From a virus (taxonomy: Duplodnaviria; Heunggongvirae; Uroviricota; Caudoviricetes), in IMG/VR virus record IMGVR_UViG_3300048091_000424: 64,000 nt of DNA; one strand, 5' to 3'. Below, piece by piece: positions 1 to 63,665 of this stretch (within the stretch, counting starts at the first letter, position 1; each line of letters begins with the position of its first letter). The notes under the pieces are model-generated. The model had not been told where the DNA came from, ran no database searches, and saw only the letters and a list, made by a program, of their open reading frames with translations. The translations under genes and the position numbers were made by a program.

Positions 1-557
1 ACAAGACTGCGGAATGGGGTATTGACGACATTGGTCACAGCGTCGTCATGAAGCTTAATTATTTGCCGACTGTCCCGGTACCGAACAAGCGGTACATCAA
101 AGACACTCACAGCTTCGACGACCTGCTTTCTGCACCGCAGTCAATTCTTGGCCAAGTCGTCGAGGAACTCAAGGATGTGAGTGCTGAGGACTTCGCCCTC
201 GCCCACTTCTGTGCCTTCAAGCAAATTGAGAACCTGGGTTACCACCAACAAGATCTGAGCGGCTTTGATCCCAACCGCTTCGCGCTTAAAGTCATGCAGG
301 CTTATGAGGCATTCAGTACGCCGGTCGGCGTTTATGCCAACGTGGGCAAGCTTGAAATCGACGACATGGCCCGCGAGGGTGCCAAGGCCCTGGTGTCCTT
401 GCTGGTGCGTGAGCATGACTTTGATCACACCGTGTTCAAGAATCTACAATCGCGCAGTGTCGCGATCCTGGCCAGCGCCGGGCTCGACAAGTCCAGGTTA
501 CCGAAAATGAGCTACCAAGACCTTGGGCAGGTGTTCGGTGAAGATCTCGGGTTATGA
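1..557 (+). CDS. 3' part of a DLGL-tail family protein; 5' end lies outside the window
   Basis: The reading frame is open from the window edge, with no in-frame stop from nt 3. GC-rich third codon positions. The protein ends ...DLGQVFGEDLGL*, the same tail as 13 other proteins in this window. Confidence 0.7.
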   Translation, partial: KTAEWGIDDIGHSVVMKLNYLPTVPVPNKRYIKDTHSFDDLLSAPQSILGQVVEELKDVSAEDFALAHFCAFKQIENLGYHQQDLSGFDPNRFALKVMQAYEAFSTPVGVYANVGKLEIDDMAREGAKALVSLLVREHDFDHTVFKNLQSRSVAILASAGLDKSRLPKMSYQDLGQVFGEDLGL

Positions 558-630
558 AATGTGACAATTAAGCATCTATGTTGCTTTGCGATGAATGCGC
601 CAGCTATGCTTGAGAAAAGAGGGGAATCCA

Positions 631-1482
631 ATGCCAATTAGTATCCGCGACGCTTTGAAAAACTGTGAAACCAGGGAAGCCAAGACTCCACTGTTCAGCC
701 TGGACAAGGTGAAGCCACTGGTGGTTCCAGTGACGCTGCTTGCCGTCGGCGCCGCGATCCCATTCGCGCCAGGCCTGGATTCCATGTTCCAGTCCATAGC
801 GGACGTCTCTCAACGGGTGGCTGAAAACACTACGCTGATTGCGCAAAAGCATACCTACCTCCTCTACGCCCTGGGCGGAATTTCCGGTACGGTTGGCCTC
901 ATGCTGTCTGGCGTTGGCTTACTTGAGCACCGCGATAGCCAGAAAGGCATAGAAAAAGCGAAGGGCAAAGAAATCATCGTCGCCACGCAAACCGCCTGGA
1001 CAAGCCTAACCCGCACCAACGATAACCTAGCTCTGCAGCTTGCGAACCGCAAGAACTGGCTGGCCAACACGCTGGGCGATAAGAGCGATCTGACCTCCGA
1101 CATCCTGGCGAATCATGGTCTTGATAAAAAGGATCATGCTGCAATGGCGGAACTTGGTCGTGCCTTCGTCTTTGGCACGCAATACGCCGTGGTCGGCGCC
1201 GATCTGCAAGGCATCAAGTTGGATGTCGACAGCTTGAGCAGCCACCCGAAGACGCAGAACGCCATTGCTGAAGGCATGCTCCAGTACTACAAGAGCAAAT
1301 CTGATGTACCAAACGCCTTGACCACCAGCTTGAAAAGCTTTGTTGGTTTAGAATCCAAGGACAACCATGTGGAACTCTTCCGGCTGGTCAGATCTGGACT
1401 GGAAGCTTTGCGTGACTTGCAGGTAGTGCACAAATCACAGGACAAAACTAGCGATCAGAGCGGCCCGAGCCACGGCATGTAG
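631..1482 (+). CDS. hypothetical protein with a central hydrophobic/Gly-rich segment; paralog of the next gene
   Basis: ATG at 631 is preceded by GAGGGG. The ORF track extends the start to 595. Architecture is similar to 1596..2477. Confidence 0.6.
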   Translation: MPISIRDALKNCETREAKTPLFSLDKVKPLVVPVTLLAVGAAIPFAPGLDSMFQSIADVSQRVAENTTLIAQKHTYLLYALGGISGTVGLMLSGVGLLEHRDSQKGIEKAKGKEIIVATQTAWTSLTRTNDNLALQLANRKNWLANTLGDKSDLTSDILANHGLDKKDHAAMAELGRAFVFGTQYAVVGADLQGIKLDVDSLSSHPKTQNAIAEGMLQYYKSKSDVPNALTTSLKSFVGLESKDNHVELFRLVRSGLEALRDLQVVHKSQDKTSDQSGPSHGM

Positions 1483-1502
1483 GGCTTAACCCCTCAAAAG
1501 AG

Positions 1503-1534
1503 AATCCCGATCTAGGTCGGGATTTTCTATTTCT
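1503..1534 (+). terminator. rho-independent terminator
   Basis: 8-bp stem aatcccga/tcgggatt with a 6-nt loop, followed by ttctatttct. Confidence 0.6.
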
Positions 1535-1595
1535 GAACTGTATCTTTAGCCGAGTATTGCCAGCTAAGATAAAAGAAAAGAGAGAGGATCATCTT

Positions 1596-2477
1596 ATGAA
1601 TACCATCCAATCTGCCCTGCGCAACGTGGTTAGCCGTGAAGCAGAGCGCCTGAAGCAATTCGACTTCAGTAGCGAGAAGATGGATGACGCCATCCACCTC
1701 GTGATCCCCGGCATCTTGTGCGGCATTGCGCTGACCGCTTTAACCATTAAGGCGGGCGGCGTCACTGAGTTGCCGGCTTACACCGCCGCTCACCTGCAGA
1801 CCTGGAAAGATCAGGTCGTAAACTTCGCCATGCAAAACCAGACGGCGTTGACCGCTGCGGGTAGCGTGATCGCAGGTGGTGGTGCGGTCATGTTCCTGAA
1901 AGGTCTGAAGGAGGAAAACGATGAACTACGCGCTCGCTGGCGCCATGCGTTCAATCCGAAGGGCCACGGCGCCGCGTACATCAACGAGGTCGAACAGACC
2001 ACGGATAAGTTGTTGTCCACCCAGCAGAACGTAGTCCGAGAAGTAGCCAGACAAGAAAAATGGGCTGACTTCGCCCTAACGGATCTGAAAGTGACGAACT
2101 TGATGATCCTGCGCACCATGGGGTACGACGTCGCCGCTGATGACCAACTCGCCACCCTACAAGATGCTTACATCTTCGGCGTGAAAAAGGCCTGCGCGGA
2201 TGCCCTGGACACCAAGCGAGACATCATCAATGGCTTCGACCAGCCGAACTATCTGGTCGAGCGCTCCATCATCGAGGGTATGACGGAGTACTTCCGCGCC
2301 ACGGCGGTAAAAGAGCCTGGCCTGGCCGACAAGTTGAAGTTCGTGTTCTTCGGGGATGACGAGATTCTGAAGGATCGAACCAAGGCCTATCAGACGGCGC
2401 ATGCCGGCTACAAGGCGATCAAGAAGATCCGTACCATCACTCCGCAGGAAGCTTCAGCGGATGAGTTCAGCCTCTGA
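1596..2477 (+). CDS. hypothetical protein, paralog of 631..1482
   Basis: ATG at 1596 follows GAGAGAGGA. It shares the same hydrophobic Gly/Ala-rich segment and length class with the upstream gene. Confidence 0.6.
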   Translation: MNTIQSALRNVVSREAERLKQFDFSSEKMDDAIHLVIPGILCGIALTALTIKAGGVTELPAYTAAHLQTWKDQVVNFAMQNQTALTAAGSVIAGGGAVMFLKGLKEENDELRARWRHAFNPKGHGAAYINEVEQTTDKLLSTQQNVVREVARQEKWADFALTDLKVTNLMILRTMGYDVAADDQLATLQDAYIFGVKKACADALDTKRDIINGFDQPNYLVERSIIEGMTEYFRATAVKEPGLADKLKFVFFGDDEILKDRTKAYQTAHAGYKAIKKIRTITPQEASADEFSL

Positions 2478-2485
2478 CCAAAACG

Positions 2486-2510
2486 CCGCCCTCGCCTTGC
2501 GTGAGGGCGG
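2486..2510. terminator. bidirectional hairpin between convergent genes
   Basis: ccgccctc / gagggcgg forms an 8-bp stem with a 9-nt loop. The T-tract is stronger on the minus strand (cgttttgg). Confidence 0.45.
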
Positions 2511-2522
2511 TGTCCTTTAGGC

Positions 2523-2798
2523 TCAGGCCTCGATCTGAGCAATCTGATCGACGCAGTTTTCGACCACGCCAATGAACTCCATGACTGCCTCAATGTGCAG
2601 CGGGCTCGTGTCGGCCAACATCAGCACGATATCTTGCAGGTAAACGGCAACCCGATCATTCAGCCCACCCAGGGCGACCAAGTCTTCCTTCGGCAGCTTT
2701 TTCATCGAGAGCGTATTGAGCTTGGTGGCACCATCGTTCAGCTCAAGAATGAGCTTGGTGAGTTTTTCGCGAGCGATTGGGCTGAGATCTTCAGTCAT
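2523..2798 (-). CDS. hypothetical small acidic protein (91 aa)
   Basis: Clean ORF whose codon usage is consistent with its neighbours. It sits convergent to the upstream pair and shares their terminator. Confidence 0.5.
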   Translation of the reverse strand: MTEDLSPIAREKLTKLILELNDGATKLNTLSMKKLPKEDLVALGGLNDRVAVYLQDIVLMLADTSPLHIEAVMEFIGVVENCVDQIAQIEA

Positions 2799-2902
2799 GG
2801 AAAGGCCTTGGAGAGTTTATTGAACCACACCTCACAATATCTCCCTGCCTGACATCACTCAAGACAAATTTGTCTTCGTGATCCCATAACGATTTGCAAT
2901 AA

Positions 2903-3493
2903 TTGCCGCACTCATCTACGCGAGAGCTCATCGTGGTTGTTCTCAAAACGCTGCCTGCACTGATCCTACTCGCCTGCCTTCAGTTCTTCTCGCCTTCCCC
3001 GGCTGAGGCACAGACGCTCGACTGGAAAACCAACCTGTTGAACCAGGATCGCTGCCTTACGCTAACGCGGGTGAAGTCCAAAGAGACCCGGCGTTTTTGC
3101 TACTGGCGAAAAAACAGTGGCCTGGATCGCCAGGGCTACAGCATGGCCAACTGGATGCTCCGCGATGTGGACTACAACGCGGTTGTGTACATGGATCCCA
3201 CACTACTAGACACCTTGTTCATCATCCAACAGTGGTTGATCCTCGAAGGTCGCAATGGCGAAATTCATGTTCTTTCAGGTTACCGGACTCCGGAACACAA
3301 CAAACGCACGAAGGGGTCGGCGAAAAACTCGCAACACATGCGCGGAACGGCCACGGATCTGCACGTACCGGGCGTCTCTACAAAATTGCTTGCCGCGATG
3401 GGTCGGGTGATCGGCGCCGGTGGCGTGGGTATCTACATCAAAAACAATTTCGTCCATGTCGACACGGCAGGTGTTCGTGTCTGGGCCGGTTGA
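2903..3493 (+). CDS. YcbK/DUF882 family protein (peptidase M15A-like), with signal peptide
   Basis: N-terminal signal peptide LPALILLACLQFFSPSPAEA. The core SGYRTPEHNKRTKGSAKNSQHMRGTATDL...GVGIY...FVHVDTAG matches the YcbK/DUF882 consensus. Confidence 0.75.
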   Translation: MPHSSTRELIVVVLKTLPALILLACLQFFSPSPAEAQTLDWKTNLLNQDRCLTLTRVKSKETRRFCYWRKNSGLDRQGYSMANWMLRDVDYNAVVYMDPTLLDTLFIIQQWLILEGRNGEIHVLSGYRTPEHNKRTKGSAKNSQHMRGTATDLHVPGVSTKLLAAMGRVIGAGGVGIYIKNNFVHVDTAGVRVWAG

Positions 3494-3627
3494 ACACCCC
3501 TTTAATATATGAGCTTTCAACAATTTAATTGGGTGTAATACCCCATAGAAAGAGTCTAGCTTCCAAATACAGAACCGACGAATAACCTCAACTTTGTTCT
3601 CTAAGTAGTTGATTTGACTCTTTCTTA

Positions 3628-16576: not shown

Positions 16577-17983
16577 ATGTACATTCGCCCTAAACGCAAT
16601 CACCCTAACGCCGGCCCCCTGCTCACCCGCACCTTGATGCGCCGCGAGGGGTCGGCGTTTGATGCCGCGATTTTTCGTGACGACGGTGATCACTACGCTG
16701 AAGACATTAAGTTCGAGTATCTCCTCTACACGGTACCCTTCTGCCTTCAGCCTGCGTTATTTGGGATTTTTCTGGGCTTCTCCAAGCCGGCCATCACCCG
16801 ATTTTTGAGCCAGGCTGAAGTCAACCTGAGCGACATCGCAGGCCTGGCAACTGATGCGTTTGATCGCGCCGTCATGATTGCGGAAACCGGTGAAGAATTT
16901 ACCCTGTGGCAATTGCAGCGTTACCTGATCGAAGCCATGTCTGGTTGCCCGGTGCGAACCCACGCCATGATCAAGGAACTGCGGTCGAAAGAATTCAGCG
17001 GTAGCATCGGCGAGTCGCTGCTGCACTGTGAAGTACCCGCGTTGTGGGTTAGTAGCCGATTTGGTGGTGATGAGACCTTCACCATGCAGCGCCTACCAAA
17101 AAACATCAATCCAAACCTCTCTTACGAGAGCAATCTGGATATTCCCAATCACTCCTTTCCCGATCTTCTCCGTAGATCCGGTGTACTCAAAGATCAGTAC
17201 ATTCGCAAAGTCTTCGCCCTTCATGATTTCTACGAAGACCTGCTGATCAACCTCAGGGATGGGGAAGGATTAGCATTGCGCATCGTCAACAGCCTGGAGT
17301 TCCTCGATGACGATGAGGTCACCTCCTTTGCTTGGGGGCTGACCAATGCTGTGTTCATCCCAGACACCGACCGCATCGCGCCCCTGGGCGAAGAAAACAG
17401 TACCAATCCCCGTCCGTTGTTCCAGGTGCTGAAAACGCTGATCGAAGAGATGGAGTGCTTTGAGTCAGCCGACACGGTGACAGTAGCGCTCAACTACCTG
17501 CCAGCCGATTACATCGGCAACATTGACCGTGTGCAAGCGGACGAGCTCTACGCTCCTCTCCACGACTTCACCACGGTACTCAATCGTTTCTGTGAGGAAC
17601 TGCTAGAGCTTAATCCACTGGACTTCACCTTGGCCCATTTCACAGCCATGTCGAAGCTGCGCAATTTCCATTTTGCGGACTTCGAGCGGCCACGCCTGAG
17701 TAACACCTGCGTGCTGAGGCACGTAGCCTCCGCCGTTAAAGCTTTCAAGCCTTTTTTCAGCGAGGCGCCGACGCCGAAATGGGAAATCGACAAGCTGGTC
17801 GTGGCTTGCTGGAGGGACTTTGCTGACTTGTTCCGCGAGAAAGATTTTCGCCTCCTGTATGACGCGTCAGAGTTCATCTCCTCTGCGGTGCTCCCTATGA
17901 ACATGATCATGGAATATGACCGAAAATTCCCTGATCTGTGCGAGGATGACAAGAAAATATTGGCACGCTTCGAGGCACTTTAG
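16577..17983 (+). CDS. hypothetical protein (468 aa)
   Basis: Long clean ORF. I recognise no motif. Confidence 0.55.
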   Translation: MYIRPKRNHPNAGPLLTRTLMRREGSAFDAAIFRDDGDHYAEDIKFEYLLYTVPFCLQPALFGIFLGFSKPAITRFLSQAEVNLSDIAGLATDAFDRAVMIAETGEEFTLWQLQRYLIEAMSGCPVRTHAMIKELRSKEFSGSIGESLLHCEVPALWVSSRFGGDETFTMQRLPKNINPNLSYESNLDIPNHSFPDLLRRSGVLKDQYIRKVFALHDFYEDLLINLRDGEGLALRIVNSLEFLDDDEVTSFAWGLTNAVFIPDTDRIAPLGEENSTNPRPLFQVLKTLIEEMECFESADTVTVALNYLPADYIGNIDRVQADELYAPLHDFTTVLNRFCEELLELNPLDFTLAHFTAMSKLRNFHFADFERPRLSNTCVLRHVASAVKAFKPFFSEAPTPKWEIDKLVVACWRDFADLFREKDFRLLYDASEFISSAVLPMNMIMEYDRKFPDLCEDDKKILARFEAL

Positions 17984-29840: not shown

Positions 29841-31406
29841 TCACAAGCCTAGGTCATTGGCGAAAGCGTGGCCGATCACCTTCAATGGAAGGTGGGGCAA
29901 GACCAGAGATTTCTCTAGTCCACCTTTGGACGTTATGGTGTTGAATTGCTGGATTGACTTAATATTGGCGCCAATTTCACTGATAGACAATGCGTTCAGT
30001 TTTACAATCTCAGCCATTATCTCAGGGTCTTTGTCGGTCACCGCATGTTTGATTACATGAAAAATAAGTTCTGATACTTTTCGCTTGGCCTGATCGCTTT
30101 CCGGGAAGGATCCCAGGAGCATTTTTGCATAAGCCATCCCACATCGACCCCTGGAATTCGTATGTGTGATCCCATATTCGAACCGTTCCAACAAGAACTC
30201 CAAGAATTCCTGCTTGGCATCCTCATTCAACAAGTTAACCCAGCGCTTCAATTTTCTTGTCGTTGCCAAGGAATTGGAGTCGCTGCATTCGGCGGAATAA
30301 TCTCTGCACCATAGAATAATACTGTCAACAGTAGAAACTTCTCGCAGAAGGTCAGCGCAGGAAGGATTTGCGGCCAACTTATCGAACCAATCTTCGTCCC
30401 ATTCAAACGCGTGCTCATTGAGCATCATGCGCAAAGGAGTCATTTCGGAACCGTCTCTGATTGCGAGTAACTCAGGTATGGGCGCGGGATTGTAATCCCA
30501 ACTAACCGCTGAGGCTAAAATACAGGACGCCAACTCCAAATGATTATCCGCAATAACCTGTCTGCCAAGATAACTGCCAATGAGTTGCTGTCGGCTGATG
30601 TCGTCGAGCACGTACAACCCGTACCTGAAATTCCGACGTGAAAAATCATCTCCAGTTAGCGTGAAGGCACGTGAAAAGCCGCCATAGGAGAGGTCGTACA
30701 GGGTGGCATCGGTGAAACGTTTGATGGAGGCGCCCACCATCTCTTGATCGAGCACGCCGGCGAGTACCATCAGCATGGGTATGCGACACAGACTGCCCTC
30801 GCCGGTTTCCAGGTTCTTGTAGGCCTTGGTTACCTTGAATTGGCTGCTAAACGGTTTGGAGTATTTTGAGCCTGGTCGTTCGCAGCGTTTGATGCCACGA
30901 ACCCATTCTTGAACCCAGGTGTCTAGATGCAACTCGTCCTGCAAAATGATCGGGACAATCCGTCCGGCCAGTAGCATCTGCCCATCCATAGTGCTGCTGT
31001 TACGACCAGGCATCGCGTCGCACTGCTTTAAGATGTTGACCTGTTCAAGCGGGGTGTATCGGTTGTTCAGTGCCTTGACGGTGTGCGGCAGCCAGATGAA
31101 GTAGCTGGTCATTTCCATGTGATGGATCAGATGGCTTAACAGCGCAATGCTGTCAGAAGAATTATCTGAGGTAAGGAAGATCCTCTTCCATTCGATCCGC
31201 TGATCCGCAATCAGCTCCGCGACCTCTTCATCACTGAACCATGGCCAGTAAAATTCAGTGTGCGCCTGGCTGGTGCTAATCAGCTCATCGATGGCCTTAC
31301 GCTTTACGAAGATTTCTTCGCCAGCGAGATCTTGCTCTTCGATATGCATCAGCAGTGGCGTAATGAACCGCTCTCGCACGTCAGCGGGCTTCATGATGGT
31401 TGTCAT
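29841..31406 (-). CDS. DLGL-tail family protein (521 aa)
   Basis: Ends ...KVIGHAFANDLGL*. It is the second gene of a two-gene operon; its start overlaps the stop of 31403..32485. Confidence 0.75.
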   Translation of the reverse strand: MTTIMKPADVRERFITPLLMHIEEQDLAGEEIFVKRKAIDELISTSQAHTEFYWPWFSDEEVAELIADQRIEWKRIFLTSDNSSDSIALLSHLIHHMEMTSYFIWLPHTVKALNNRYTPLEQVNILKQCDAMPGRNSSTMDGQMLLAGRIVPIILQDELHLDTWVQEWVRGIKRCERPGSKYSKPFSSQFKVTKAYKNLETGEGSLCRIPMLMVLAGVLDQEMVGASIKRFTDATLYDLSYGGFSRAFTLTGDDFSRRNFRYGLYVLDDISRQQLIGSYLGRQVIADNHLELASCILASAVSWDYNPAPIPELLAIRDGSEMTPLRMMLNEHAFEWDEDWFDKLAANPSCADLLREVSTVDSIILWCRDYSAECSDSNSLATTRKLKRWVNLLNEDAKQEFLEFLLERFEYGITHTNSRGRCGMAYAKMLLGSFPESDQAKRKVSELIFHVIKHAVTDKDPEIMAEIVKLNALSISEIGANIKSIQQFNTITSKGGLEKSLVLPHLPLKVIGHAFANDLGL

Positions 31407-32485
31407 AGCCCGAGGTCAGCCGAGAAGGCGCCGCCAAGCGCTTCTACGCTGAAATCTCGTTTATCCAGGCGATCCAAGTCAATACCCGGAATGGCGTTCA
31501 GCAGATCGAAGTCCTGAAGGGTCTTGAGTCCTGTTGCCAAAGCCTTCGCGTCCATCTGATTGAAGTACTTCGCATAACTCACGCCCGCCAGATGTGCGCG
31601 CCCTACTCCCAAGGCCAGGCCCACACTGTCACCCAAAGCCAGATCAGCTCGTATGCCTTTCATGAGTTCTGACTTGAATGCGTTCATGCGATCATCAGTA
31701 TCCAGCAGCAACTGCAACAGGTGCTCGGCATGATCACTGTCGAATGCACCCTCCAAGCGCTCTTTGAGAAAACCGGCCAGGCGGTTGATGAACGAAGGCC
31801 CTGGGTTATCGTCTGTTGAGGACGTCGCCAACTGTAGGTCAAGGAATAACGCTTTGCTGTTCTCGTCGTACTCCCGTCCCATCAGGCTGCCCAACAGGGC
31901 GTCATCCAGGAAGGTCATAAAGGGCGGCGCAGTCTGCTCATGCGCGGTCACACGCCGCAACTCACCAACGAGTCGATAAGCATTACAGTCAAGACTGGTG
32001 GCCGCCTGGCCGAGCTCACTCAAACCATTCTTTACCAGCAGGTTAGGAGCAGCGCGGCCAAGGCCTTCCATGAGCGACTTTGCGATGCTCGAAAGTGCTG
32101 CAGGGCTTACCGGGTCGGTCGATGAAGCAACAGAACGCAGCAGTGAACGCGCAGAGAAGCCGGCAGACTTGGTCAGGCCTTTGTCCATATCCGCAAGGCC
32201 CAGCGATGAGCCCACCACAGGAGTCAGAGGCTTGACGAGATCCGCGTTCAGGCTTGCTGCAGCGACATCCAGTTGATGGTAATCACAGGACACTTTGAAG
32301 AGGATCGGTACAGTGATATCGAAGTGGCCGGTGAGCGCGGCCAACTCCGTCTGAACCAAAGAAGTGGGCAGACCTGTCGTCAGGCCACCCCCTTCGGATA
32401 AAAACGAAAATACTGCCTGGTTCAGCGCGTTCAGTGAGTCTTCAGGAAGCGCCTCGTTTACTGGATTTGACATTGGATTTGCCAC
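31403..32485 (-). CDS. DLGL-tail family protein (360 aa)
   Basis: Ends ...EALGGAFSADLGL*. Confidence 0.75.
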   Translation of the reverse strand: MANPMSNPVNEALPEDSLNALNQAVFSFLSEGGGLTTGLPTSLVQTELAALTGHFDITVPILFKVSCDYHQLDVAAASLNADLVKPLTPVVGSSLGLADMDKGLTKSAGFSARSLLRSVASSTDPVSPAALSSIAKSLMEGLGRAAPNLLVKNGLSELGQAATSLDCNAYRLVGELRRVTAHEQTAPPFMTFLDDALLGSLMGREYDENSKALFLDLQLATSSTDDNPGPSFINRLAGFLKERLEGAFDSDHAEHLLQLLLDTDDRMNAFKSELMKGIRADLALGDSVGLALGVGRAHLAGVSYAKYFNQMDAKALATGLKTLQDFDLLNAIPGIDLDRLDKRDFSVEALGGAFSADLGL

Positions 32486-37262: not shown

Positions 37263-37435
37263 GAAAAGTACCTATGTGAATGAAGGTTACAGCCGCAGCT
37301 GGCTCGCTTTGCACAACTCACAAACTATACCGATATATTGACACTGCGACAAACAACATGCCTGTGACACTGGCGCCAGCCAGACCGCGTGCGTCACACT
37401 TAAATATCGTCGCAATCACTTCAGGCTGCCGCAGC

Positions 37436-38308
37436 ATGACCCCGGATTATCGCCAGCTCTCTGATGAGGATCTTCTGGATCTTGTGCTCTACGACAAGAT
37501 CGAGGTTCAGGACATTCCGCCAGCCAGAATGACTCGATCTTTCATACTCGAGGGCTCCCGGCAATTGCAGCGGTTTACCAAGAAGCTCACCCCGGAGCAA
37601 TTCACTCCGGAAGTGCAGACGATTGAGATCGAGCATTTACTCAAATCGCTTAGTTTTGTGGAGCTGGCCACGCTTCCCGAGAAGGCCGGTTACGCTGTGG
37701 TCGCCAGGCTGTATTTGAAGCGGTTCTCGGACAACATTCATGAAATACATCCGTCCTACCTGACTGATGATGACATCCAGACCGCCATCCTGAAAAATCC
37801 TGACTTGGTGAAATTACACAACCCTGCTCTCTTTGTTGCTGCACTCACACCGGCCCTGGCCAATCAACTGATTGAACATGACATTGCCAAGATCGATATG
37901 GTCGACCCATGGGTCATCACCGACGAATCTCTAAAGGCCGGCATTCACAAGAGGCCGCTCCGACTCCCCCATTTCGGAAAAGGCGAAGCGTTTCGACGCC
38001 TCATGGCTTTGCTCAAAACTGGATACTGGCCAGATCCAGACAACAACATCTGGATTACCTACCACAAACCCAGGACAGTGGCTGAGGCCGTAAAGAACAG
38101 ACTGGCTGACCACAATCAGCTGGCTGATATAACTCTACTCGATGCATATCTTTGCATTCAGCCGCTGACGTCTCTGAAGCTTCACGTGAGCAACAATGAG
38201 CTCCTCTTGCGCCTGATGCCCTGGTATCCGAAAGAAGAGGTGCTATCGACCTTCAAGGAGAACCTGGTGGTGGTCGGCGATGTGTTCAAAGCAGACCTCG
38301 GTCTCTAA
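37436..38308 (+). CDS. DLGL-tail family protein (paralog of 38327..39277)
   Basis: Ends ...VVVGDVFKADLGL*. Shares the (S/T)GYWP(D/E) motif with the next gene. Alternative upstream starts at 37358 or 37280. Confidence 0.7.
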   Translation: MTPDYRQLSDEDLLDLVLYDKIEVQDIPPARMTRSFILEGSRQLQRFTKKLTPEQFTPEVQTIEIEHLLKSLSFVELATLPEKAGYAVVARLYLKRFSDNIHEIHPSYLTDDDIQTAILKNPDLVKLHNPALFVAALTPALANQLIEHDIAKIDMVDPWVITDESLKAGIHKRPLRLPHFGKGEAFRRLMALLKTGYWPDPDNNIWITYHKPRTVAEAVKNRLADHNQLADITLLDAYLCIQPLTSLKLHVSNNELLLRLMPWYPKEEVLSTFKENLVVVGDVFKADLGL

Positions 38309-38326: not shown

Positions 38327-39277
38327 ATGACCGACGCGCACGAAAGCTATGACCACTACGATTACGAACCGTCGCCATTTGAGACCAAACCAAAGGGTGA
38401 CTGGACTGACCAGGACTACGCCGATGCTTTGGGTGAGCAGAAAATCGTCTGGAATGAGATTCCTGGGTCATTCAGAACCAGCACAGTCTACCAGGTGGCC
38501 GTGACTCAGGATCGTACGTTGTACGGGCAAATACCGAAGGATCATCTGAACACCGAAATTCAGCTGAATGCGATCCGAACTTTCCCCGCGTTGTTCGCTG
38601 AGCAGAAGTTCTTTAACCCAAAGCTCTGCGATAACTACTACACCCTGGCGTGCGCGGCGGTCGCGACTGACGCCCAAAATATCTACGAGGTCAGCATTCA
38701 GTGCATTGATCGTCGTCTAGTGAGCGAGGCCATCCTCACCCAGCCGACCGTGGTGTACCACCTGTGGCAAAGATCGGAAGAACTGTGCAAAGAATTGGTG
38801 GATCAAGCCTTCGTCGAAGAGGCGGCTATCGATAACCTCAGCTGCATAGTCCTGCACAAATCGTTTAAGGGCAGAAACTACCTCGCTGACTTCCCTCTCC
38901 CGGATGAGGTTCTGATCAAAGCCGTCGAGGCACAACCGAAGAAAGCACGCTTGCTCGCAGAACTTGGCAGGGAGGGACTGCTCACTGAAATGATCAGGTC
39001 TGGCTACTGGCCTGAACACTGGCATGACATATCCAGGCCACAAGACCTGGATGCAGGCATTACGGCGTTCATCCGGAACAAGGAATCTGCAATTCAGCGA
39101 GCCTACTACAAGGCCTACATCAACCAGTGGCCATCGAGTGAAGTCATTCCCCTGATGCTCAACTGGCCGAGGAAAAACTACCTCCCGGACTTGTTCCCCA
39201 AGGAGGAATTGTTTGACGTGTTCAAGGGCGATCTGCAGACCCTGGGCAAATGGTTCAGCGAAGACCTTGGACTGTAA
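38327..39277 (+). CDS. DLGL-tail family protein
   Basis: Ends ...LGKWFSEDLGL*. Confidence 0.75.
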   Translation: MTDAHESYDHYDYEPSPFETKPKGDWTDQDYADALGEQKIVWNEIPGSFRTSTVYQVAVTQDRTLYGQIPKDHLNTEIQLNAIRTFPALFAEQKFFNPKLCDNYYTLACAAVATDAQNIYEVSIQCIDRRLVSEAILTQPTVVYHLWQRSEELCKELVDQAFVEEAAIDNLSCIVLHKSFKGRNYLADFPLPDEVLIKAVEAQPKKARLLAELGREGLLTEMIRSGYWPEHWHDISRPQDLDAGITAFIRNKESAIQRAYYKAYINQWPSSEVIPLMLNWPRKNYLPDLFPKEELFDVFKGDLQTLGKWFSEDLGL

Positions 39278-44108: not shown

Positions 44109-44792
44109 ATGGAGAAGGCGGTGAACAAGGCTTGCAGCGTCAGCAAAATAAAGACAGCGACATTGTCATTTACCGCATCACCCCCTGTGGGGATGTCCGT
44201 GTGCACAGAAAGCCAGGAAGAATACCGTCAGCGCCTGAACACCATCATCAAATGGGAAGTGGCCCAGTATTTCGATACCGGCAAGAAAGAACCGGCAAAC
44301 TGGGGACAGTTTAGCCTCCAGCGCAGCATGGTATTTCCCGTCCACAAAGGAACCACCGCCTACTCCTATCAGGGAAAAGGCCTAATCCACGCCTATGATC
44401 TGAGCATGCTCAAGCCGGCGTTGATGAAAACCAAGGGAAAGAAGCTGAAGGATTATCAGGAGGCTGTAGACCGATTCACTCGCGTCGTAAGCACTCTATC
44501 CGTCAATGACCTTCATGAGCTGAAGATCCACTACCAGGGTGACCTGACGCTCGCACTCAGAGTGAAAGACAGGCAACTCCATTGGATTACCGGGGAAGAA
44601 ACCCACGAGACCCTCACCTTCCAGGACTCGGAAACCGCTGAAGGCCTGATGACCGCGTTGGAGCAATACGGGGAAACTGGCGAGATCGATGATGCCTACA
44701 CGATGTTCATGCTAACGCCATTCGATCTGCACAAATCGGAGATGAACCTCAATCAGAGGGGCCGACTGTTCGCCATCGATCTTGGGCTTTGA
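44109..44792 (+). CDS. DLGL-tail family protein (227 aa)
   Basis: Ends ...RGRLFAIDLGL*. Confidence 0.75.
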   Translation: MEKAVNKACSVSKIKTATLSFTASPPVGMSVCTESQEEYRQRLNTIIKWEVAQYFDTGKKEPANWGQFSLQRSMVFPVHKGTTAYSYQGKGLIHAYDLSMLKPALMKTKGKKLKDYQEAVDRFTRVVSTLSVNDLHELKIHYQGDLTLALRVKDRQLHWITGEETHETLTFQDSETAEGLMTALEQYGETGEIDDAYTMFMLTPFDLHKSEMNLNQRGRLFAIDLGL

Positions 44793-49930: not shown

Positions 49931-51289
49931 ATGGACAACACCTTCCTCGGGCAATATTACCCAGCAGCCTCTGATCGTGAGCGCCGAGCCCTGGCCGAGA
50001 GGATCAGACACATCTCTGATGAAGATCGAGCCGCCCTGTTCAATGACCTGTCGAAAATGTCCGCTGATACCCTATTCTACTTCGTTGAGGGTATGACTCA
50101 GGCTCAGGCATTACCGCACCTGGTCACCATGGCTATCGAATCCAGGCCAACTTTAACGGGTTTCAACTACAACAACACCCTCTCCATGATCAACTTGGCG
50201 CTAAAAACCCCTTTCGACGAAAAATTCGACAAGGCCGCTGCCGTCTCGGGCGTTGCTAAGCTGATCAAAGGGTATGTGCACCGCACCAACATGAACCTCA
50301 TCGAAGGTATCTCAACGTCGCTGACGAAGGAATCGATAACCCTCTTGTCGGGTCATCACGAGATCGACGCGGCATTTGTTGAACACCTCGGGCGTGCATT
50401 AACTAAAAAACCAAGTTTCGCGCAGACCCAAAACATCATTTATGGCCTGCGTGATCTTGATATTCCACTCTCGTTCGCAACCTTCCTCGTTACGATCAAG
50501 GAGCCTGAGCAATACGCCATTCGTTCGAACCTCTTAAACGACTTTTACCACGGCAATGCCTTGACGCCCGCCTACATCAAAACCATTCGTGCCGAGTTGG
50601 GCGATGACGTTCTGATTAACCTGGCCAGGTTGAACATTAACGAAAAGAAAGCCGGCCTCACATCCTTCAACTGGATAGTGAGTGAATTGACAGAAGCGGT
50701 TGTGATCAACCAGGCCACCCTGGATCAGCAGCTTGCAGCTTCTATCAAGGCGAAAAAGGCCTGTGATTTTTTCAGCGACATTCTGGCGGGAACCAAAGGC
50801 TCTGGGATCTACGAACAATCTGCCACGTTTGTGTTGAACAACCTGGCTACCCTCATCAAGCACGAAAAACTGGCACCGAGTGAATCTTTTGCCTACTTTG
50901 CCAGGGATTCAAAACGGGGCCAGGAGCTGGTAAGCGTTTACCTGGACAAAATAGCGTCCATGATTTCGGGGCTGGATGATTTCCGCGATGTGAACCCTGA
51001 GCATCGCTTCGACGCTAAGGCCAATACCCAAGGCGCGGTGTTGAGCGAGGTGTTCAACATTCGCTATGAGCTGCCTGAAGCTCGGGACATCAAAACCTGG
51101 CGCAACGCAACCATCCGGGCTATCACCACCACTGGTGTGCTGGAGTTTGCCGAGAGCCTAGCCGACATCCATGAACCAGCTGCGATGGCGATCTACAAGG
51201 ACATGGGCACCGTAGCGAACCGAGATGAAATCCTGAAGAAGTTCATGAAGATTCGCCAGGTCGCGTTCTGTTCCGACTTAGGTATGTGA
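49931..51289 (+). CDS. DLGL-tail family protein (ends DLGM); tandem paralog A
   Basis: Ends ...RQVAFCSDLGM*. Aligns from MDNTFLG with the next gene's MQNTFLG. The track ORF starts at 49850. Confidence 0.7.
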   Translation: MDNTFLGQYYPAASDRERRALAERIRHISDEDRAALFNDLSKMSADTLFYFVEGMTQAQALPHLVTMAIESRPTLTGFNYNNTLSMINLALKTPFDEKFDKAAAVSGVAKLIKGYVHRTNMNLIEGISTSLTKESITLLSGHHEIDAAFVEHLGRALTKKPSFAQTQNIIYGLRDLDIPLSFATFLVTIKEPEQYAIRSNLLNDFYHGNALTPAYIKTIRAELGDDVLINLARLNINEKKAGLTSFNWIVSELTEAVVINQATLDQQLAASIKAKKACDFFSDILAGTKGSGIYEQSATFVLNNLATLIKHEKLAPSESFAYFARDSKRGQELVSVYLDKIASMISGLDDFRDVNPEHRFDAKANTQGAVLSEVFNIRYELPEARDIKTWRNATIRAITTTGVLEFAESLADIHEPAAMAIYKDMGTVANRDEILKKFMKIRQVAFCSDLGM

Positions 51290-51320: not shown

Positions 51321-52667
51321 ATGCAGAACACCTTCCTCGGGGAAAATTTCACTCTCCCAGCATTTTCAGAAAAGGCGCTGCTGGGAGAAAGAATCAAGAA
51401 TATGACCGCCGAAGAGCGGACTTACCTTGAAAATGACCTGGCGGCCATGAGTGCTGAAGCTGTGTATCACATCGTCTCCCAAATGGCTGTCGCCACCCGT
51501 CTGCCAAATCTGGCCAGTGCGGCTGTAGCCTCTCGCCCTGTGCCCACGGGTTTTTGCTTTAATCACACCTTGTCGATGCTCAATTACGTCCTGGTCAATC
51601 AGGATGAAGAGGAGTTTGACGCCGACCAAGCGCTCCTCGACGCCGCTAGCCTGATCAAAGGCTATCAGCACCGGACGAACATGAACCTGCTGGAAGAAGT
51701 TTCATCCCAGGTGACCAAAAAGTCGAAGGCGTTGATGGCCGGGAACGCAGGCATCGACGAAGCCTTTGTCGAACACCTTGGCCGAGCGCTGGAGAAAAGG
51801 TTAGTTTTCAGCAAAGCGGAAGGCATGATCGCCGGCCTATGTGAACTAAACCTTCCCCAGTCACTTAAATGCGTACTGGCTGCCTTCAAGGCGTCAGAGC
51901 ATGTGCACCTCCTCCATACAACACTCCAGGATTTGTACACAAAGGACGCGCTCAACCCGGCTTACATCGAAGTGGTGAGGTCTGTGTTGGGCGACCAGAG
52001 CTTGATCAGCCTGGCCAGGACGCACCTGAATGACAACTCTGGGCAGAAGTCTTTTGTTTGGCTACTGGAAGCATTTTCAGAGAAGACACTGCTCGATCAC
52101 CTTACCCTGGGTGATCATCTGGAATATTCGATCAAACTGAAGAAGCCCTGTTTCTTCTTCAACAGCATTCTGAGAGGGAACAAAGAGCTAGGTCTTCTCC
52201 AGAATACTGGGAACTTTGTGTTGGACAACCTCGCGGTTTTGGTCGCGAGCGAAGCATTTCCGCCTAGCGATAAGCTGGTCGAGTTTGCCATCGAGCAAGG
52301 ACGCGGCGCCGAATTGGTTAGTCTGTATCTGGACAATATTCGGGCACAGATCACTCGTATGGAGGATCGTGTTCACGCCGAAGATCGTTTCGATTCGATA
52401 GGCGCCACACCGGGCCAGGTGTTGAATGAAGTCCTCAAGAATCGCTATAGCATTGAGGCTCCGGAGATTACCCGGTGGCGTGATGCGACCATCCGAGCCG
52501 TCATCAAAATTGGCGTGCTGGAGTTTCAGACGGTACTGGCTGACATGAACGAGGAGCTGGCCACCACCCTTCACAAGCAAATTGGTAATGCGCCGAACCG
52601 TATGGAAATTCTGGAGAAGTGCCTCAAGATTCGGCAGGTCGCGTTCAGCCACGACCTGGGCTTGTAG
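51321..52667 (+). CDS. DLGL-tail family protein; tandem paralog B
   Basis: Ends ...RQVAFSHDLGL*. Confidence 0.75.
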   Translation: MQNTFLGENFTLPAFSEKALLGERIKNMTAEERTYLENDLAAMSAEAVYHIVSQMAVATRLPNLASAAVASRPVPTGFCFNHTLSMLNYVLVNQDEEEFDADQALLDAASLIKGYQHRTNMNLLEEVSSQVTKKSKALMAGNAGIDEAFVEHLGRALEKRLVFSKAEGMIAGLCELNLPQSLKCVLAAFKASEHVHLLHTTLQDLYTKDALNPAYIEVVRSVLGDQSLISLARTHLNDNSGQKSFVWLLEAFSEKTLLDHLTLGDHLEYSIKLKKPCFFFNSILRGNKELGLLQNTGNFVLDNLAVLVASEAFPPSDKLVEFAIEQGRGAELVSLYLDNIRAQITRMEDRVHAEDRFDSIGATPGQVLNEVLKNRYSIEAPEITRWRDATIRAVIKIGVLEFQTVLADMNEELATTLHKQIGNAPNRMEILEKCLKIRQVAFSHDLGL

Positions 52668-59149: not shown

Positions 59150-60175
59150 TTAGGCCGTTACCGGAGCTTTGCTCTCTTCAGCCTTTTTGTGGCGGAAGGA
59201 AGAAAAGATCGCCAGGGCAATCAAGACTGCGCCAGCCAGACCGGTGAACATCTCTGGCACGTGCATGAAGTTGTGGCAGAGCATGATTGCAGCCAGGACA
59301 CCGATGGCGTAGTGAGCGCCGTGCTCCAGGTAGACCAGTTCAGCCAGTACACCAGCACGAACCAGGTGGATCGTGATCGAACGCACGAACCAAGCGCCGA
59401 TGGCCAGACCCAGCATGATGATGATCGGGTCATTGCTCATCGCGAAGGCGCCAATCACACCGTCCAACGAGAAGGACGCATCAACGACCTCAAGATAGAG
59501 AAAACTCATGAACCCACCGCGCTTGATAGTTTCCGTCACTGCCTCGCCAGTGTCTTTGTCTTCGAAGGCGTTCTTCAGCAGACCCATCACGAAGTACAGA
59601 GCGATACCGAAGACGCCGGCGAACAAGAACGTGCCAACCTTGCCTGCTTCAATACCCATGGACACGCTAATCAGGACAACCAGGGCCACAATCGAGCTCA
59701 TCGTCTGGTGCTCGCCAAAGCGGCCCATAAGACGCTCTACGCCACCCAGCCAGTGGTGTTCTTTTTCGGAGTCGAACAGGAAGTCGAGGAAGATCATCAG
59801 CAGGAACATGCCGCCGAATGCGGTAATCGCGGTGCTCGCTTCGTCCAGGTGTTTGGAGTACGACGCGGTGTCATTGAACACCATGTTGGCCGTTTCCATG
59901 AAGCCCAGGTTGGCGGTGACTGCAACGATGAGCACCGGCAGTAGCAAACGCACGCCTACCACTGCAATCAAGATACCCAGCCAAAGGAACAGGTTCTGCC
60001 AAAAAACACTCATATTTTGGAGGATTTTAGCGTTGAACACGGCGTTATCAAAGCTCACGCTCACTTCAAGCACGCCCAGGATCGCGACGATGAAGGCACC
60101 TTCCACCCCATGGAAGTAGTAACCCAGACAAATACCGATGATGGCGACCAGCGCCGACGTCCAATAATTTCGCAT
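59150..60175 (-). CDS. terC: TerC-family integral membrane protein
   Basis: Polytopic; the SFDNAVFNA and ...HGAHYA... motifs are TerC-like. SD AGAGG before ATG 60175. Confidence 0.75.
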   Translation of the reverse strand: MRNYWTSALVAIIGICLGYYFHGVEGAFIVAILGVLEVSVSFDNAVFNAKILQNMSVFWQNLFLWLGILIAVVGVRLLLPVLIVAVTANLGFMETANMVFNDTASYSKHLDEASTAITAFGGMFLLMIFLDFLFDSEKEHHWLGGVERLMGRFGEHQTMSSIVALVVLISVSMGIEAGKVGTFLFAGVFGIALYFVMGLLKNAFEDKDTGEAVTETIKRGGFMSFLYLEVVDASFSLDGVIGAFAMSNDPIIIMLGLAIGAWFVRSITIHLVRAGVLAELVYLEHGAHYAIGVLAAIMLCHNFMHVPEMFTGLAGAVLIALAIFSSFRHKKAEESKAPVTA

Positions 60176-60410
60176 TGCCAAACCTCTAGTTTTAGGAAGC
60201 GAGGCGAGACACCGGTAGGAGCCCTTTCTCGACTTTTGAGTGAGTGGAGTAGCCCCGAGCATTCAATCCGATAGGATCGGTACTGGGCCAGAGCCAAACG
60301 CGAGAGGGATTATTGCGAATATTGACGACTTGTCAATACATGTGGAATGTTTTTATGGCGTTTTGATGCCAGCCTGCCGAACAGTGGTGCCCGGCAGGAG
60401 GTGCGATAGG

Positions 60411-61457: not shown

Positions 61458-61622
61458 TCCTATTTTTCTTATTGATTTATAATGACAAAATTCACGAAGA
61501 AAACAATCTATTTGTTGTCAATTGAATGCAGAAAAAACATTAAAAAAAGATGCACCATCAATTGACACACGGTAAAGGCCAGGTATACTGACACCAAGAA
61601 CGTCAAATCTTGGAGAACGACG

Positions 61623-62288
61623 ATGAAAATCCGTAGCTTTAGTACCGCAGCTGCTGTGGTCGTGACCGTCTTGGTGGTCATCGAGATCTTTTTAGGTTTT
61701 GCTCGCAACCCATTGGATGACCGCTGGGTGGGTAAAGTCGAATTGGTGACCATTTCCAAGGTTAAGCCACTCGACGTCACCATGACCTATGAGATGCTCG
61801 ATCCAGGTTTCGTGATGAACATTCGTCCAGACGTTACCCGTCCTGGCGTGAGGATCACCTACGAAGGGCCAGATGCTGACGTCCTGCGTAAAATGAACAT
61901 CAAGCCTGAATTGTTTGCCAGCCCGGATCGGTGGAAATTCAGCCAGGGCTACTGCAACCTCCATGTCGAGAAGAAGTTGGCGTGGCAGGGAACCAGCTAC
62001 CTCGGTGGCCCAGAAGTCAACATGTACGCAATGCGTTACCAGACCGAGCCGAAAGATCCGTGCGAGACCTACGAGCTTGGCGTGGTTGACTTTAACCACC
62101 TCGACTTCAAAATCTTGCGTCCTGGTGAAGGCCAGTACAGCATGAACGGTATCAGTCTGAAAGACATGGTTCATGTGTCGCTGGAGCGTGATAGTCGCGT
62201 AAGCTTCATTCAACGGATGGTTATGCGGATGCGGTTCGGATGGTGGCTTGAACAACCAACTTTCCAGAAAGATGGTTCAAACACCTGA
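61623..62288 (+). CDS. N-terminally anchored protein paralogous to the C-terminal domain of 44911..46038
   Basis: One N-terminal TM helix. Shared EMLDPGF, YLGG and ERDSRVSFIQRMVMRMRF motifs. Confidence 0.6.
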   Translation: MKIRSFSTAAAVVVTVLVVIEIFLGFARNPLDDRWVGKVELVTISKVKPLDVTMTYEMLDPGFVMNIRPDVTRPGVRITYEGPDADVLRKMNIKPELFASPDRWKFSQGYCNLHVEKKLAWQGTSYLGGPEVNMYAMRYQTEPKDPCETYELGVVDFNHLDFKILRPGEGQYSMNGISLKDMVHVSLERDSRVSFIQRMVMRMRFGWWLEQPTFQKDGSNT

Positions 62289-62345
62289 CGATTAACGTAG
62301 GTAAACAAAAGCCCTGGCATGCCAGGGCTTTTTTATTGTGTGAAT

Positions 62346-63665
62346 TTACAACCCAAGGTCTTTGCTGAAGGCTTTGCCCAAATCCTTTGTTGCCAGATAC
62401 TTGGTGTAGTAGCTGGAGTCGTCAAACTCAGTTATAAGTTGTGCGCGCCCCTTCGCATTTAACGTTGACACGCAATACTCCCAATCAATCAAATCCTTTG
62501 CGATTGACAACACTCTTTTTACCGAATCAGATTGCATTTTATCACTACGCCCATTGAGCAAAGTAATAAAGACCTGGCCGATCAACTTTTTTTGCACAGC
62601 TGGATCAAGAGCCGACCCCCAAACTTTACCGATGAGATTAAACATCTCATTAGGGATTTGAGCTGCAGAGGCTTTTTGTGTTGGAACACCGAAACATTGC
62701 AGCGCTATTGAGCTTTTTTGACTGAGTGTTTCAATCAACTGCTCAGCGGAGGCATGGAGTGCCTCACTCATCACCTTACGGATTACCGGCACATGGTAGC
62801 CTTTCCGATCTTTCGGCAGGGCGTCATCATAATGGCCAAAGCGATTTCTGATGCGTGATGGTCTGTCATCAGGTTCATCACTAATGCTCTTGAACAACGC
62901 ATAGCGCTGCAGCCATGCCTTCACCTCTGGGGCGTCGTTACCTGGGTGCATTTTGAAGCCAAGATAATTAGGCTCTCCCTCGGCAGCGTTAATGGCCATT
63001 GGGAGGCGTTCCAGAAGGTTCAACTCAGCACCATAGCGACTGGCCTTCACAGTGTCTGGAGACAGCACCCCTTCCAACGCCTTGTAAATGATCTTCGCCT
63101 CTGCCGGCTCGAACAGTGCCGCCACGAGGTTAAATAACTTGCCCGTCCTGAACCCATTCTCGAGATGATCCGAGCGTACACCCCGGTTATCTTCATCCCC
63201 ATGAACCTCTAAATGACTACCGTATTCACGGATAAATTGTCTCAAGAAGAGGTGATCTGGATGGGGCGGTTGCCGCCAGACGCCATCCCTGTCCAGCCAA
63301 CTACTGGACTCGTAACAAAGACCAGTAAGGAGGAGCCAGAATTCATCCGCCTTTAGCGCTTCGAGAAAGAACCTGAAGTCATCTGCTGACAACAGATCTG
63401 GTCGTGAAAAAACTTCCAATTCGCGGGGTGCTTGCGCCATATTGTGGCGCTGTACCTGAAAACGAACTTCGTTACCTTGGCGCTCCTGAATGGCATACAC
63501 CAGAGGGCCAATCGGTTCGACAAATTCACCCGCCTTTTCCATGGCGTTTAATTTTTTACGAAACTCAATGAACGGCGGACTTTTGCGGGGCAACTCAGGC
63601 TGTTTTTGTTCCACGATCAGGGCTCCTAGGCTATTGATCCAGGTTAGCACTGCCGCAACGGTCAC
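62346..63665 (-). CDS. DLGL-tail family protein (439 aa)
   Basis: Ends ...DLGKAFSKDLGL*. Confidence 0.75.
   Translation of the reverse strand: MTVAAVLTWINSLGALIVEQKQPELPRKSPPFIEFRKKLNAMEKAGEFVEPIGPLVYAIQERQGNEVRFQVQRHNMAQAPRELEVFSRPDLLSADDFRFFLEALKADEFWLLLTGLCYESSSWLDRDGVWRQPPHPDHLFLRQFIREYGSHLEVHGDEDNRGVRSDHLENGFRTGKLFNLVAALFEPAEAKIIYKALEGVLSPDTVKASRYGAELNLLERLPMAINAAEGEPNYLGFKMHPGNDAPEVKAWLQRYALFKSISDEPDDRPSRIRNRFGHYDDALPKDRKGYHVPVIRKVMSEALHASAEQLIETLSQKSSIALQCFGVPTQKASAAQIPNEMFNLIGKVWGSALDPAVQKKLIGQVFITLLNGRSDKMQSDSVKRVLSIAKDLIDWEYCVSTLNAKGRAQLITEFDDSSYYTKYLATKDLGKAFSKDLGL

Follow-up and report, generated by a model that had tools for sequence, protein, structure and literature searches.

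A strictly terminal peptide tail on unrelated proteins of Pseudomonas megaplasmids, a candidate address label for type IVB secretion

Fourteen genes with one ending

The DNA considered here, deposited as IMG/VR virus record IMGVR_UViG_3300048091_000424 and called the window below (the whole stretch of 64,000 nucleotides), encodes a set of proteins from several families that all end alike. When the window is translated from stop to stop in six frames, 14 open reading frames (ORFs) terminate in [DE]LG[LM] directly before the stop codon. All 14 have phenylalanine at position -7, counted back from the last residue at -1, so that the tail reads F-x-x-[DE]-L-G-[LM]-stop. The last four residues are DLGL in 12 of the carriers, ELGL in 1, and DLGM in 1, and DLGL is the only C-terminal tetrapeptide that recurs in the window. 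The same 14 ORFs, at the same positions, had been picked out in an original prediction made from this DNA alone. Their share of the genes, put there at about 15%, is indeed high but comes to ~22% of the ~63 genes of the window. The first of them, taken to span 1..557, does have the tail at its end, but the window edge cuts through its gene, so that of a ~480-aa protein just the C-terminal portion is left; relatives in the same family on the megaplasmid pPL1 (described below) have 465 to 493 aa, and the pPL1 orthologue g0748 is 79% identical.

Could so many like endings have come about by chance? When the residues of the 153 ORFs of 100 aa or more were shuffled 500 times, such endings arose 0.008 times on average and never more than once per shuffle, compared with the 14 seen, and even a looser form of the motif is internal to window ORFs at few places only. 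Nor is the tail a feature of the DNA. In the 48 nucleotides before each stop, the codons for its Leu and Gly residues vary from gene to gene, all three stop codons are in use after it, and the downstream DNA is unrelated among carriers. A DNA-level repeat, a terminator, or the end of a mobile element as the source of the tail is thereby ruled out. Orthologues tell the same story. Between the window and pPL1, whose orthologous proteins are 56 to 90% identical, the last 8 codons of 13 orthologue pairs show 46 identical, 41 synonymous, and 17 nonsynonymous states, and the nonsynonymous changes fall at -8, -6, or -5 or are conservative (D/E at -4, L/I at -1). Because codons differ synonymously between genes and between orthologues, the tail is selected as protein and not as a DNA repeat; it is kept by purifying selection at the protein level.

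With their tails taken off, the window carriers fall into ~8 families, namely, T02 to T06, T09/T10 (a weak pairing; blastp E=0.009), T12/T13, and five singletons. Several families had been predicted, though the number then given was about ten. The carriers are listed in Table 1 together with other features of the window.

Table 1. Tail-bearing genes and other features of the window
Feature	Position	Strand	Description	C-terminal end
T01	3..557	+	C-terminal part, gene cut by window edge	VFGEDLGL
T02	21513..22634	+	373 aa, first gene of five-gene tandem array	LFGLELGL
T03	22645..23841	+	398 aa, T02 paralogue	AFSRDLGL
T04	23882..25069	+	395 aa, T02 paralogue	AFTRDLGL
T05	25066..26253	+	395 aa, T02 paralogue	MFGMDLGL
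T06	26312..27514	+	400 aa, distant paralogue of T02 to T05 (hhalign probability 96%)	RFGQDLGL
T07	29841..31406	-	521 aa, own family	AFANDLGL
T08	31403..32485	-	360 aa, own family	AFSADLGL
T09	37280..38308	+	up to 342 aa, start uncertain	VFKADLGL
T10	38327..39277	+	316 aa, weak T09 paralogue	WFSEDLGL
T11	44109..44792	+	227 aa, own family	LFAIDLGL
T12	49931..51289	+	452 aa, start as called on the JGI contig	AFCSDLGM
T13	51321..52667	+	448 aa, T12 paralogue (44% identity)	AFSHDLGL
T14	62346..63614	-	~422 aa, ORF open to 63665	AFSKDLGL
Tail-less T01-family member	16577..17983	+		KFPDLCEDDKKILARFEAL (KFPDLCEDD...EAL)
RNA ligase	15434-16462	+	best relatives in jumbo phages SCTP-2, RsoM2USA, and CcrBL9	
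P-loop protein	18344-20767	+	807 aa	
ART-PolyVal ADP-ribosyltransferase	20911-21516	+	stand-alone	
tRNA array	33172-35083	+	n=11: Asn, Leu x2, Glu x3, Asp x3, Arg x2	
Tellurite-resistance-type genes	42873-44021, 57828-60262	-	ATPgrasp_Ter, two TerD, DUF475/TerC	
CCA-adding enzyme	48414-49913	-		
Small ORF	9412-9819	-		(KP)n repeat, ...KRKPKPKPKPKPKPIE

The replicon and the lineage flavors of the tail

What kind of replicon carries these genes? The window is a piece of a ~1.08-Mb Pseudomonas megaplasmid, not of a chromosome, because its homologues map to Pseudomonas plasmids of 1.06 to 1.17 Mb. Homologues of the T02 family are found on a 1,059,468-bp plasmid contig of Pseudomonas serbica and on pPL1, the 1,168,067-bp circular plasmid of P. 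silesiensis (NZ_CP143488.1), and a protein identical to T13 is encoded on a 1,077,129-bp metagenomic contig from the Joint Genome Institute (JGI). A search for related loci with a narrower protein alignment had P. serbica as its sole match; in a tblastn search, T13 matched no phage and, among plasmids, pPL1 only. The replicon is related to both plasmids and to the pMPPla107/pBASL58 family. Megaplasmids of the pMPPla107 type are circular molecules of ~1 Mb with a GC content of ~53 to 55%, tens of tRNA genes, and mostly hypothetical genes (PMC6482414). The window itself has a GC content of 52.5% and 11 tRNA genes, and the replicon family agrees with known members in size, GC content, tRNA load, an MPF_I/Dot-Icm-like type IV secretion system (T4SS), and synteny. 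For example, a TerD-TerD-DUF475-ATP-grasp block is syntenic between the window and pBASL58 (791 to 798 kb of the record), with tail genes interleaved. Divergence from the relatives is high, nucleotide-level matches being confined to tRNAs. A ~1-Mb conjugative-type megaplasmid of soil- and plant-dwelling Pseudomonas thus takes the place of the setting first proposed, the effector repertoire of a host-associated gammaproteobacterium.

The whole sequence of pPL1, with 1250 genes called in this analysis, gives a measure of the scale on which the tail is used. On this plasmid, the ending [DE]LG[LMIV] is present in 82 ORFs that are 100 aa or longer, and with the variants DLNL, DIGL, DMGL, and DLSL included the carriers number ~99 of the 1250 called genes (8%). 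Endings of the form [DE]LG[LM] occur in 71 proteins, against 0.13 expected from shuffles, so that the enrichment over chance claimed for the window holds on its relative as well. The motif is also strictly terminal; F..[DE]LG[LM] stands at the end of the protein in 70 of its 70 occurrences in the predicted pPL1 proteome, and no significant internal match to a 24-column hidden Markov model (HMM) of the tail was found. The tail had been described as seven residues long. It is a terminal motif, as claimed, with a consensus that reaches back to -14 and covers ~16 residues: L(-14)-x3-G/A(-10)-x2-F(-7)-S/G-x-D/E(-4)-L-G-L. Among 113 carriers, L(-14) is present in 66, G/A(-10) in 84, F(-7) in 110, and both D/E(-4) and a hydrophobic residue at -3 (L, I, or M) in all 113. 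The carriers are acidic (median isoelectric point, 5.5), with a median length of 415 aa, and a hydrophobic segment, even a weak one, is present in 9 of the 113, compared with 178 of 721 other proteins. By these measures they are soluble proteins of a cytosolic type. Their genes are arranged in tandem on pPL1, with as many as a dozen paralogues in one array, and to judge from the sequences these arrays diverge fast. Other C-terminal tetrapeptides recur on pPL1 as well (GPSL six times; SPTP, SPSP, and KLLQ four times each); these may reflect paralogues, insertion sequences, or further tags.

How well is the tail kept over longer distances? When 1.84 billion representative proteins were searched exhaustively with the T02-family profile, 34 clusters came up, and the terminal tail is present in all 28 of the full-length members that were retrieved, including distant ones at E=1e-5. 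In some family members, the tail has been lost or buried. The T01-family gene at 16577-17983 is homologous and syntenic to positions 4197-5648 of the related contig L028, whose product ends HFTNELGI (blastp, 2e-15); the P. serbica orthologue ends KFPELGEDD..., and the pPL1 counterpart, g0729, is recruited to the T01 family. From these alignments, the window gene looks like one with a decayed tail buried beneath an extension of ~15 residues. An ankyrin-repeat protein of pBASL58 is without the tail.

Where the tail is kept, its flavor depends on the plasmid and not on the protein. The window, pPL1, and contig L029 use F[SGA]x[DE]LG[LI] or, in the case of the first two, F[SG]xDLGL. The form is FTx[ES]LG[VI] on L028 (3/3), Lxx[DE]LG[LF] on pBASL58 (L or I at -7 in 7/7), LExx[GA]LGL on the 1.28-Mb contig L032, and [LIV]Exx[DE][LM]G[MI] on the P. 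putida contig L034 (...[LM]G[MI] in 6/6). T07 orthologues on pPL1, L027, L029, L032, and L034 likewise retain tails of the lineage-specific type, and unrelated families on one replicon have a common, lineage-specific flavor. Such concerted change in the sequences argues for coevolution with one receptor. It also disfavors a conserved host target, because the flavor changes by plasmid lineage; a ligand of the host beta-clamp or of a host PDZ protein is disfavored on these grounds. The beta-clamp-binding motif of Pol IV ends QLVLGL-COOH and resembles the tail in being a terminal, hydrophobic ...LGL peptide. The tail, however, lacks the Q-L consensus, and ~100 nonreplicative ORFans are implausible clients of a clamp. 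Another candidate, a truncated acyl-carrier-protein motif (F-x-E-D-L-G-x-D-S), was set aside because no carrier-protein fold or Pfam match was found and every lineage has the tail at the very end of the protein.

The neighbors of the tail genes are in part those of a large phage. The tRNA array, the RNA ligase, and the CCA-adding enzyme look like a module for tRNA supply and repair, and PTH2 is also present on related contigs. The tRNA array, the RNA ligase, and the lack of PHROG or Pfam matches had pointed to a jumbo phage, an origin that was replaced once homologues were mapped to Pseudomonas megaplasmids; a reading of the tail as a capsid-targeting signal was dropped with it. Further neighbors of the window carriers include an SPFH protein and a nonspecific endonuclease. 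The stop of the ART-PolyVal gene overlaps the start of T02 by 4 nucleotides, and the order RNA ligase, T01-like gene, ART-PolyVal, T02-family gene(s) is retained in L028 and L029; on L034 and L035, the same genes are clustered in a changed order. The P-loop protein has only weak matches (AAA_22, Zeta_toxin, BrxC/D, and DUF6035), and the small ORF near the start of the window has a C terminus made of (KP)n repeats. In the regions 1-5532 and 18869-20197 of the metagenomic contig L032, tail genes adjoin those for a giant ESPR/YDG-repeat protein of 4222 aa and for a protein with a WGR-PARP domain. On pPL1, a Cas3-like helicase-nuclease (759,432-762,092), an FtsH-like AAA+/M41 protease (1,016,352-1,018,373), Mfd, LigA, RecJ, RecD2, and NrdA are encoded as well.

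Bodies without a common family, tails that stand apart

Is the tail simply the end of one protein family? To cluster the 113 proteins, their last 20 residues were removed. The tail-less bodies form 47 BLAST families, or 43 after an iterative HMM search. An all-versus-all hhalign comparison of the 22 multimember family profiles gave a single merge (T02 to T05 with T06, 96%), all other pairs staying below 50% probability, in keeping with the claim that the tail sits on bodies with no common sequence family. Domain searches say little about these bodies. The 14 window carriers have no Pfam or PHROGs match, and the 98 pPL1 carriers have two weak Pfam matches only (DUF4116 and DUF3135) and no NCBIfam or PADLOC match.

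The AlphaFold2 model of T02 (predicted local distance difference test [pLDDT] score, 88.6) is an all-alpha helical repeat, and that of T13 (pLDDT, 82) is likewise all alpha; in these models, both families resemble HEAT/ARM/TOG-like helical repeats. The tail is a helix in both. It is the best-conserved segment, and yet model confidence drops there, to 68 over the last three residues of T02 and to below 50 over the last 9 residues of T13 (pLDDT, 39). Conservation combined with low model confidence is typical of a docking peptide. One side observation concerns the T02 family. A 1249-aa protein, P0048, contains seven separate stretches that match its profile at positions 188 to 233, and a submotif of the family may exist elsewhere as a tandem repeat.

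Both modeled families being generic alpha-helical-repeat proteins, their bodies may have an ancient common origin. Might the tail, then, have no receptor at all and be merely the final structural helix of a single ancient superfamily that has diverged explosively, kept for folding, oligomerization, or membrane contact? The two families are unrelated in sequence and still have all-alpha repeat folds, the tail is helical in both models, and loss of the tail within a family, but no transfer between families, is seen. A packed core helix, however, should raise model confidence where here it falls, and it need not stand at the exact C terminus in 70 of 70 cases. Concerted change across families within a lineage is not expected of it either, and hhalign shows no relationship among the bodies. 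Only a slim chance is therefore given to this explanation.

A second alternative keeps the receptor and dispenses with export. The helical-repeat bodies would bind targets, and the tail would plug each of these adaptors into one plasmid-encoded intracellular enzyme or scaffold, much as F-box or BC-box receptors plug into the core of a ligase. HEAT/ARM/TOG-like folds, as modeled for both families, are typical protein-binding scaffolds; the carriers lack enzymatic domains; the tandem paralogue arrays diverge fast; and concerted evolution of the tail would suit any receptor encoded on the element. On the other hand, no candidate hub has been identified, we know of no bacterial precedent for ~100 adaptors serving one hub, and a strict placement at the extreme C terminus is more typical of sorting and export tags. 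Docking to an internal hub is judged unlikely, if the most serious of the rivals.

A third possibility is that the tail is a degron, read by a plasmid-encoded FtsH-like AAA+/M41 protease or by ClpXP, Lon, or FtsH of the host, which would make the ~100 proteins short-lived or conditionally stable. Nonpolar free C termini are classic protease tags, as in the LAA-COOH end of ssrA and in FtsH substrates. The tail is flexible in the models, and g1122 of pPL1 is a protein with AAA and Peptidase_M41 domains. Why, though, would a plasmid build 8% of its genes for degradation? This is hard to explain, as is the length of the motif, which at ~16 residues with L(-14), G(-10), and F(-7) conserved exceeds that of typical degrons; the lineage-specific flavors, moreover, speak against a conserved host protease. 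A degron is accordingly thought somewhat less probable than the hub.

Type IVB machinery and possible destinations

If the tail is a tag for a dedicated receptor, which machine would read it? The original prediction had proposed an export or sorting tag. Its terminal position and concerted flavors support the part about a dedicated receptor; export is inferred only. The prediction had also advised looking for the apparatus elsewhere in the genome, and such genes are indeed present on pPL1. They include a DotA/TraY homologue (TIGR04346, E=7e-108), an IncI TrbC/DotL-type coupling ATPase, or type IV coupling protein (T4CP) (NF041447, 4e-103), and, directly adjoining the latter, a DotM/IcmP homologue (NF033890, 2e-37; Legionella DotM structure PDB 6EXA, 9e-24). 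In the region 1,103,172-1,112,505, the T4CP/DotM pair is flanked, as judged by eye, by g1199, with an FtsZ/tubulin-like GGGTGTG signature, and by g1207, which looks actin/ParM-like. Also encoded on pPL1 is an R64-like type IVb thin pilus, with a T2SSE ATPase, PilO, and a secretin recognized by Pfam and pilin-like N termini recognized by eye. Searches against Pfam, NCBIfam, and PDB sequences gave no match for g0038, a 1013-aa protein of DotO size. Among related plasmids, pBASL58 is typed MPF_I, and a 2011 paper on pMPPla107 credits that plasmid with a complete T4SS of the Dot/Icm-like kind, adding that it was unknown whether the system also secretes effectors or serves conjugation only (PMC3136466). 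Of the 1080 genes of pMPPla107, 776 are hypothetical, and no recognizable effectors were noted (PMC3136466). The analogy with Dot/Icm substrates, drawn at first without any apparatus in sight, thus gains a context in the type IVB secretion system (T4BSS) genes of related replicons.

The favored reading, held tentatively and at slightly less than even confidence, is that the tail is a translocation signal, unusually fixed in sequence, of the Dot/Icm-like T4BSS of these megaplasmids. In molecular terms, a C-terminal helix of 16 to 20 residues, hydrophobic(-7)-x-x-[D/E]-L-G-hydrophobic-COOH, would serve as the address label and would dock by its free carboxyl end into one receptor encoded on the same element. 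That receptor would be the coupling-protein complex of the T4BSS, made of the DotL/TrbC-type ATPase and its DotM/TrbA-type partner. The complex would then hand tagged proteins over to the channel for delivery into a target cell, which could be (i) the recipient bacterium in conjugation, where they might help the plasmid to establish itself or counter defenses, (ii) a competitor, or (iii) a eukaryote. Injection of bacteria has been reported for a Pseudomonas T4BSS (PMC9519443).

The likeness to the Dot/Icm systems of Legionella and Coxiella goes some way. In both, the signal, putative in the megaplasmids, lies in the last ~20 to 30 residues of hundreds of unrelated, mostly ORFan proteins that make up ~8 to 10% of the coding repertoire, often in paralogue arrays, and many Dot/Icm substrates are without known domains. 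Nagai, in 2005, reportedly placed the Dot/Icm signals at the C terminus with a hydrophobic residue near -3, a position that is hydrophobic here as well, and homologues of DotA, DotL, and DotM are found in the replicon family. There are differences. The Legionella signal is compositional and degenerate, whereas the megaplasmid tail is near invariant and stands at the very end; the megaplasmid system, moreover, is located on a conjugative-type element with an R64-like thin pilus, so that its targets may be bacteria. According to work cited in PMC9519443, the Dot/Icm coupling complex reads the short linear motifs FxxxLxxxK and EExxE, and adaptors of T4CPs read short helical linear motifs, FxxxLxxxK being an example.

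Several points weigh against a T4BSS signal. First, the tail has neither of these motifs. In the 113 carriers, the FxxxLxxxK register read by LvgA is absent, and in place of a Glu-rich block (EExxE) lysine is enriched between -20 and -9 (K38 at -13, K27 at -17), so that the known binding modes of DotM or LvgA would not apply. Second, the T4BSS genes lie outside the window and were found on the relative pPL1, whose orthologous proteins share 56 to 90% identity with those of the window. Third, all tail-bearing replicons seen belong to one megaplasmid superfamily with many other genes in common, and other export systems or hubs may be encoded on pPL1, the FtsH-like AAA protease g1122 being one candidate. 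Fourth, domains of toxins or enzymes and domains of a eukaryote-like kind are absent from the carriers. Finally, no T4BSS signal known to us is a fixed terminal motif.

How do other conjugative and secretion systems compare? The IncI plasmids R64 and ColIb-P9 have the same MPF_I architecture (TraY/DotA, TrbC/DotL, TrbA/DotM, and a type IVb thin pilus), and their I-type conjugation transfers the Sog primase to recipients, a precedent for the delivery of protein by a conjugative system. For the IncI system, however, only one protein substrate or a few are known, and a consensus tag has not been described. XVIPCD, found on the X-Tfe effectors of the Xanthomonadales, is likewise a common C-terminal module on otherwise unrelated proteins that is meant for a T4SS coupling protein. 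It is, however, a folded domain of ~120 residues for VirD4 of a type IVA system, while in the megaplasmid proteins conservation is limited to a peptide of ~16 to 20 residues, the regions upstream are unrelated, and the apparatus is type IVB.

The original prediction knew of no signal with a fixed tetrapeptide of this kind at its end; fixed tags at the extreme C terminus do have precedents, namely, the "D plus three hydrophobic residues" ending of protease-type substrates of type I secretion systems (T1SS), peroxisomal targeting signal 1 (PTS1), and the cargo peptides of encapsulins. Ghigo and Wandersman, in 1994, are said to have located the signal of T1SS metalloproteases, lipases, and HasA in acidic and hydrophobic residues at the extreme C terminus, and the tail resembles this class in being a short free-C-terminal motif of an acidic residue followed by hydrophobic ones (D-L-G-L). 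PTS1 (-SKL-COOH, read by PEX5) and encapsulin cargo peptides offer an analogy of another kind, a fixed C-terminal tag that takes many unrelated proteins to one receptor for which the free carboxylate is essential, albeit in a different kingdom or compartment. Could the tail then belong to another sorting machine, as a type I secretion signal or as a cargo-loading peptide for an encapsulin- or microcompartment-like shell? Encapsulin cargo peptides (...DLGIRK) and the protease-type T1SS ending are formally alike to it, and phage-like genes are present on the replicon (the RNA ligase with its jumbo-phage relatives and the tRNA arrays). T1SS substrates, however, have RTX/GG repeats and a pair of an ATP-binding cassette (ABC) transporter and a membrane-fusion protein nearby. 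No HemolysinCabind or other repeat family, and no RTX or other T1SS-substrate repeat, was found in the 14 window or 98 pPL1 carriers. In the ~30 window and ~30 pPL1 proteins scanned, no such transporter pair turned up, nor did Linocin_M18/encapsulin or any other shell gene or a peroxin-like gene. Published descriptions of the plasmid family mention a T4SS only. Another machine of this sort is considered very unlikely.

Among these explanations the T4BSS translocation signal is thus preferred, and it can be taken one step further. In its bolder form, the conjugation machine would double as an injector, which would deliver ~100 tagged, diversifying helical-repeat proteins per plasmid into recipients or competitors, with tag and receptor coevolving in such a way that each plasmid exports its own cargo only. 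This extension is speculative, and doubtful as matters stand.

What would such a system mean for these plasmids? C-terminal secretion and sorting tags are known as such; what is new is a near-invariant, strictly terminal consensus on ~100 proteins of conjugative megaplasmids, with variants by lineage, of which full-text literature searches found no published description. The tail gives a handle on the question of what the T4SS of pMPPla107 might carry: each plasmid offers ~100 candidate substrates, the tail itself is a peptide of ~16 residues, and its natural, lineage-specific variants could serve in mapping the receptor. Should it prove to be a T4BSS signal, no earlier one would have been simple enough for cargo to be predicted by a regular expression, and a portable delivery tag might be made from it. 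If the injector reading is true as well, it would be the first fixed linear type IVB signal, and no conjugative element would have been described with a larger protein cargo. If it is not a T4BSS signal, it would still be an unnoticed sorting or docking system that organizes 8% of the genes on plasmids that are among the largest known. Either way, the tail system would account for part of the "dark matter" of these megaplasmids.

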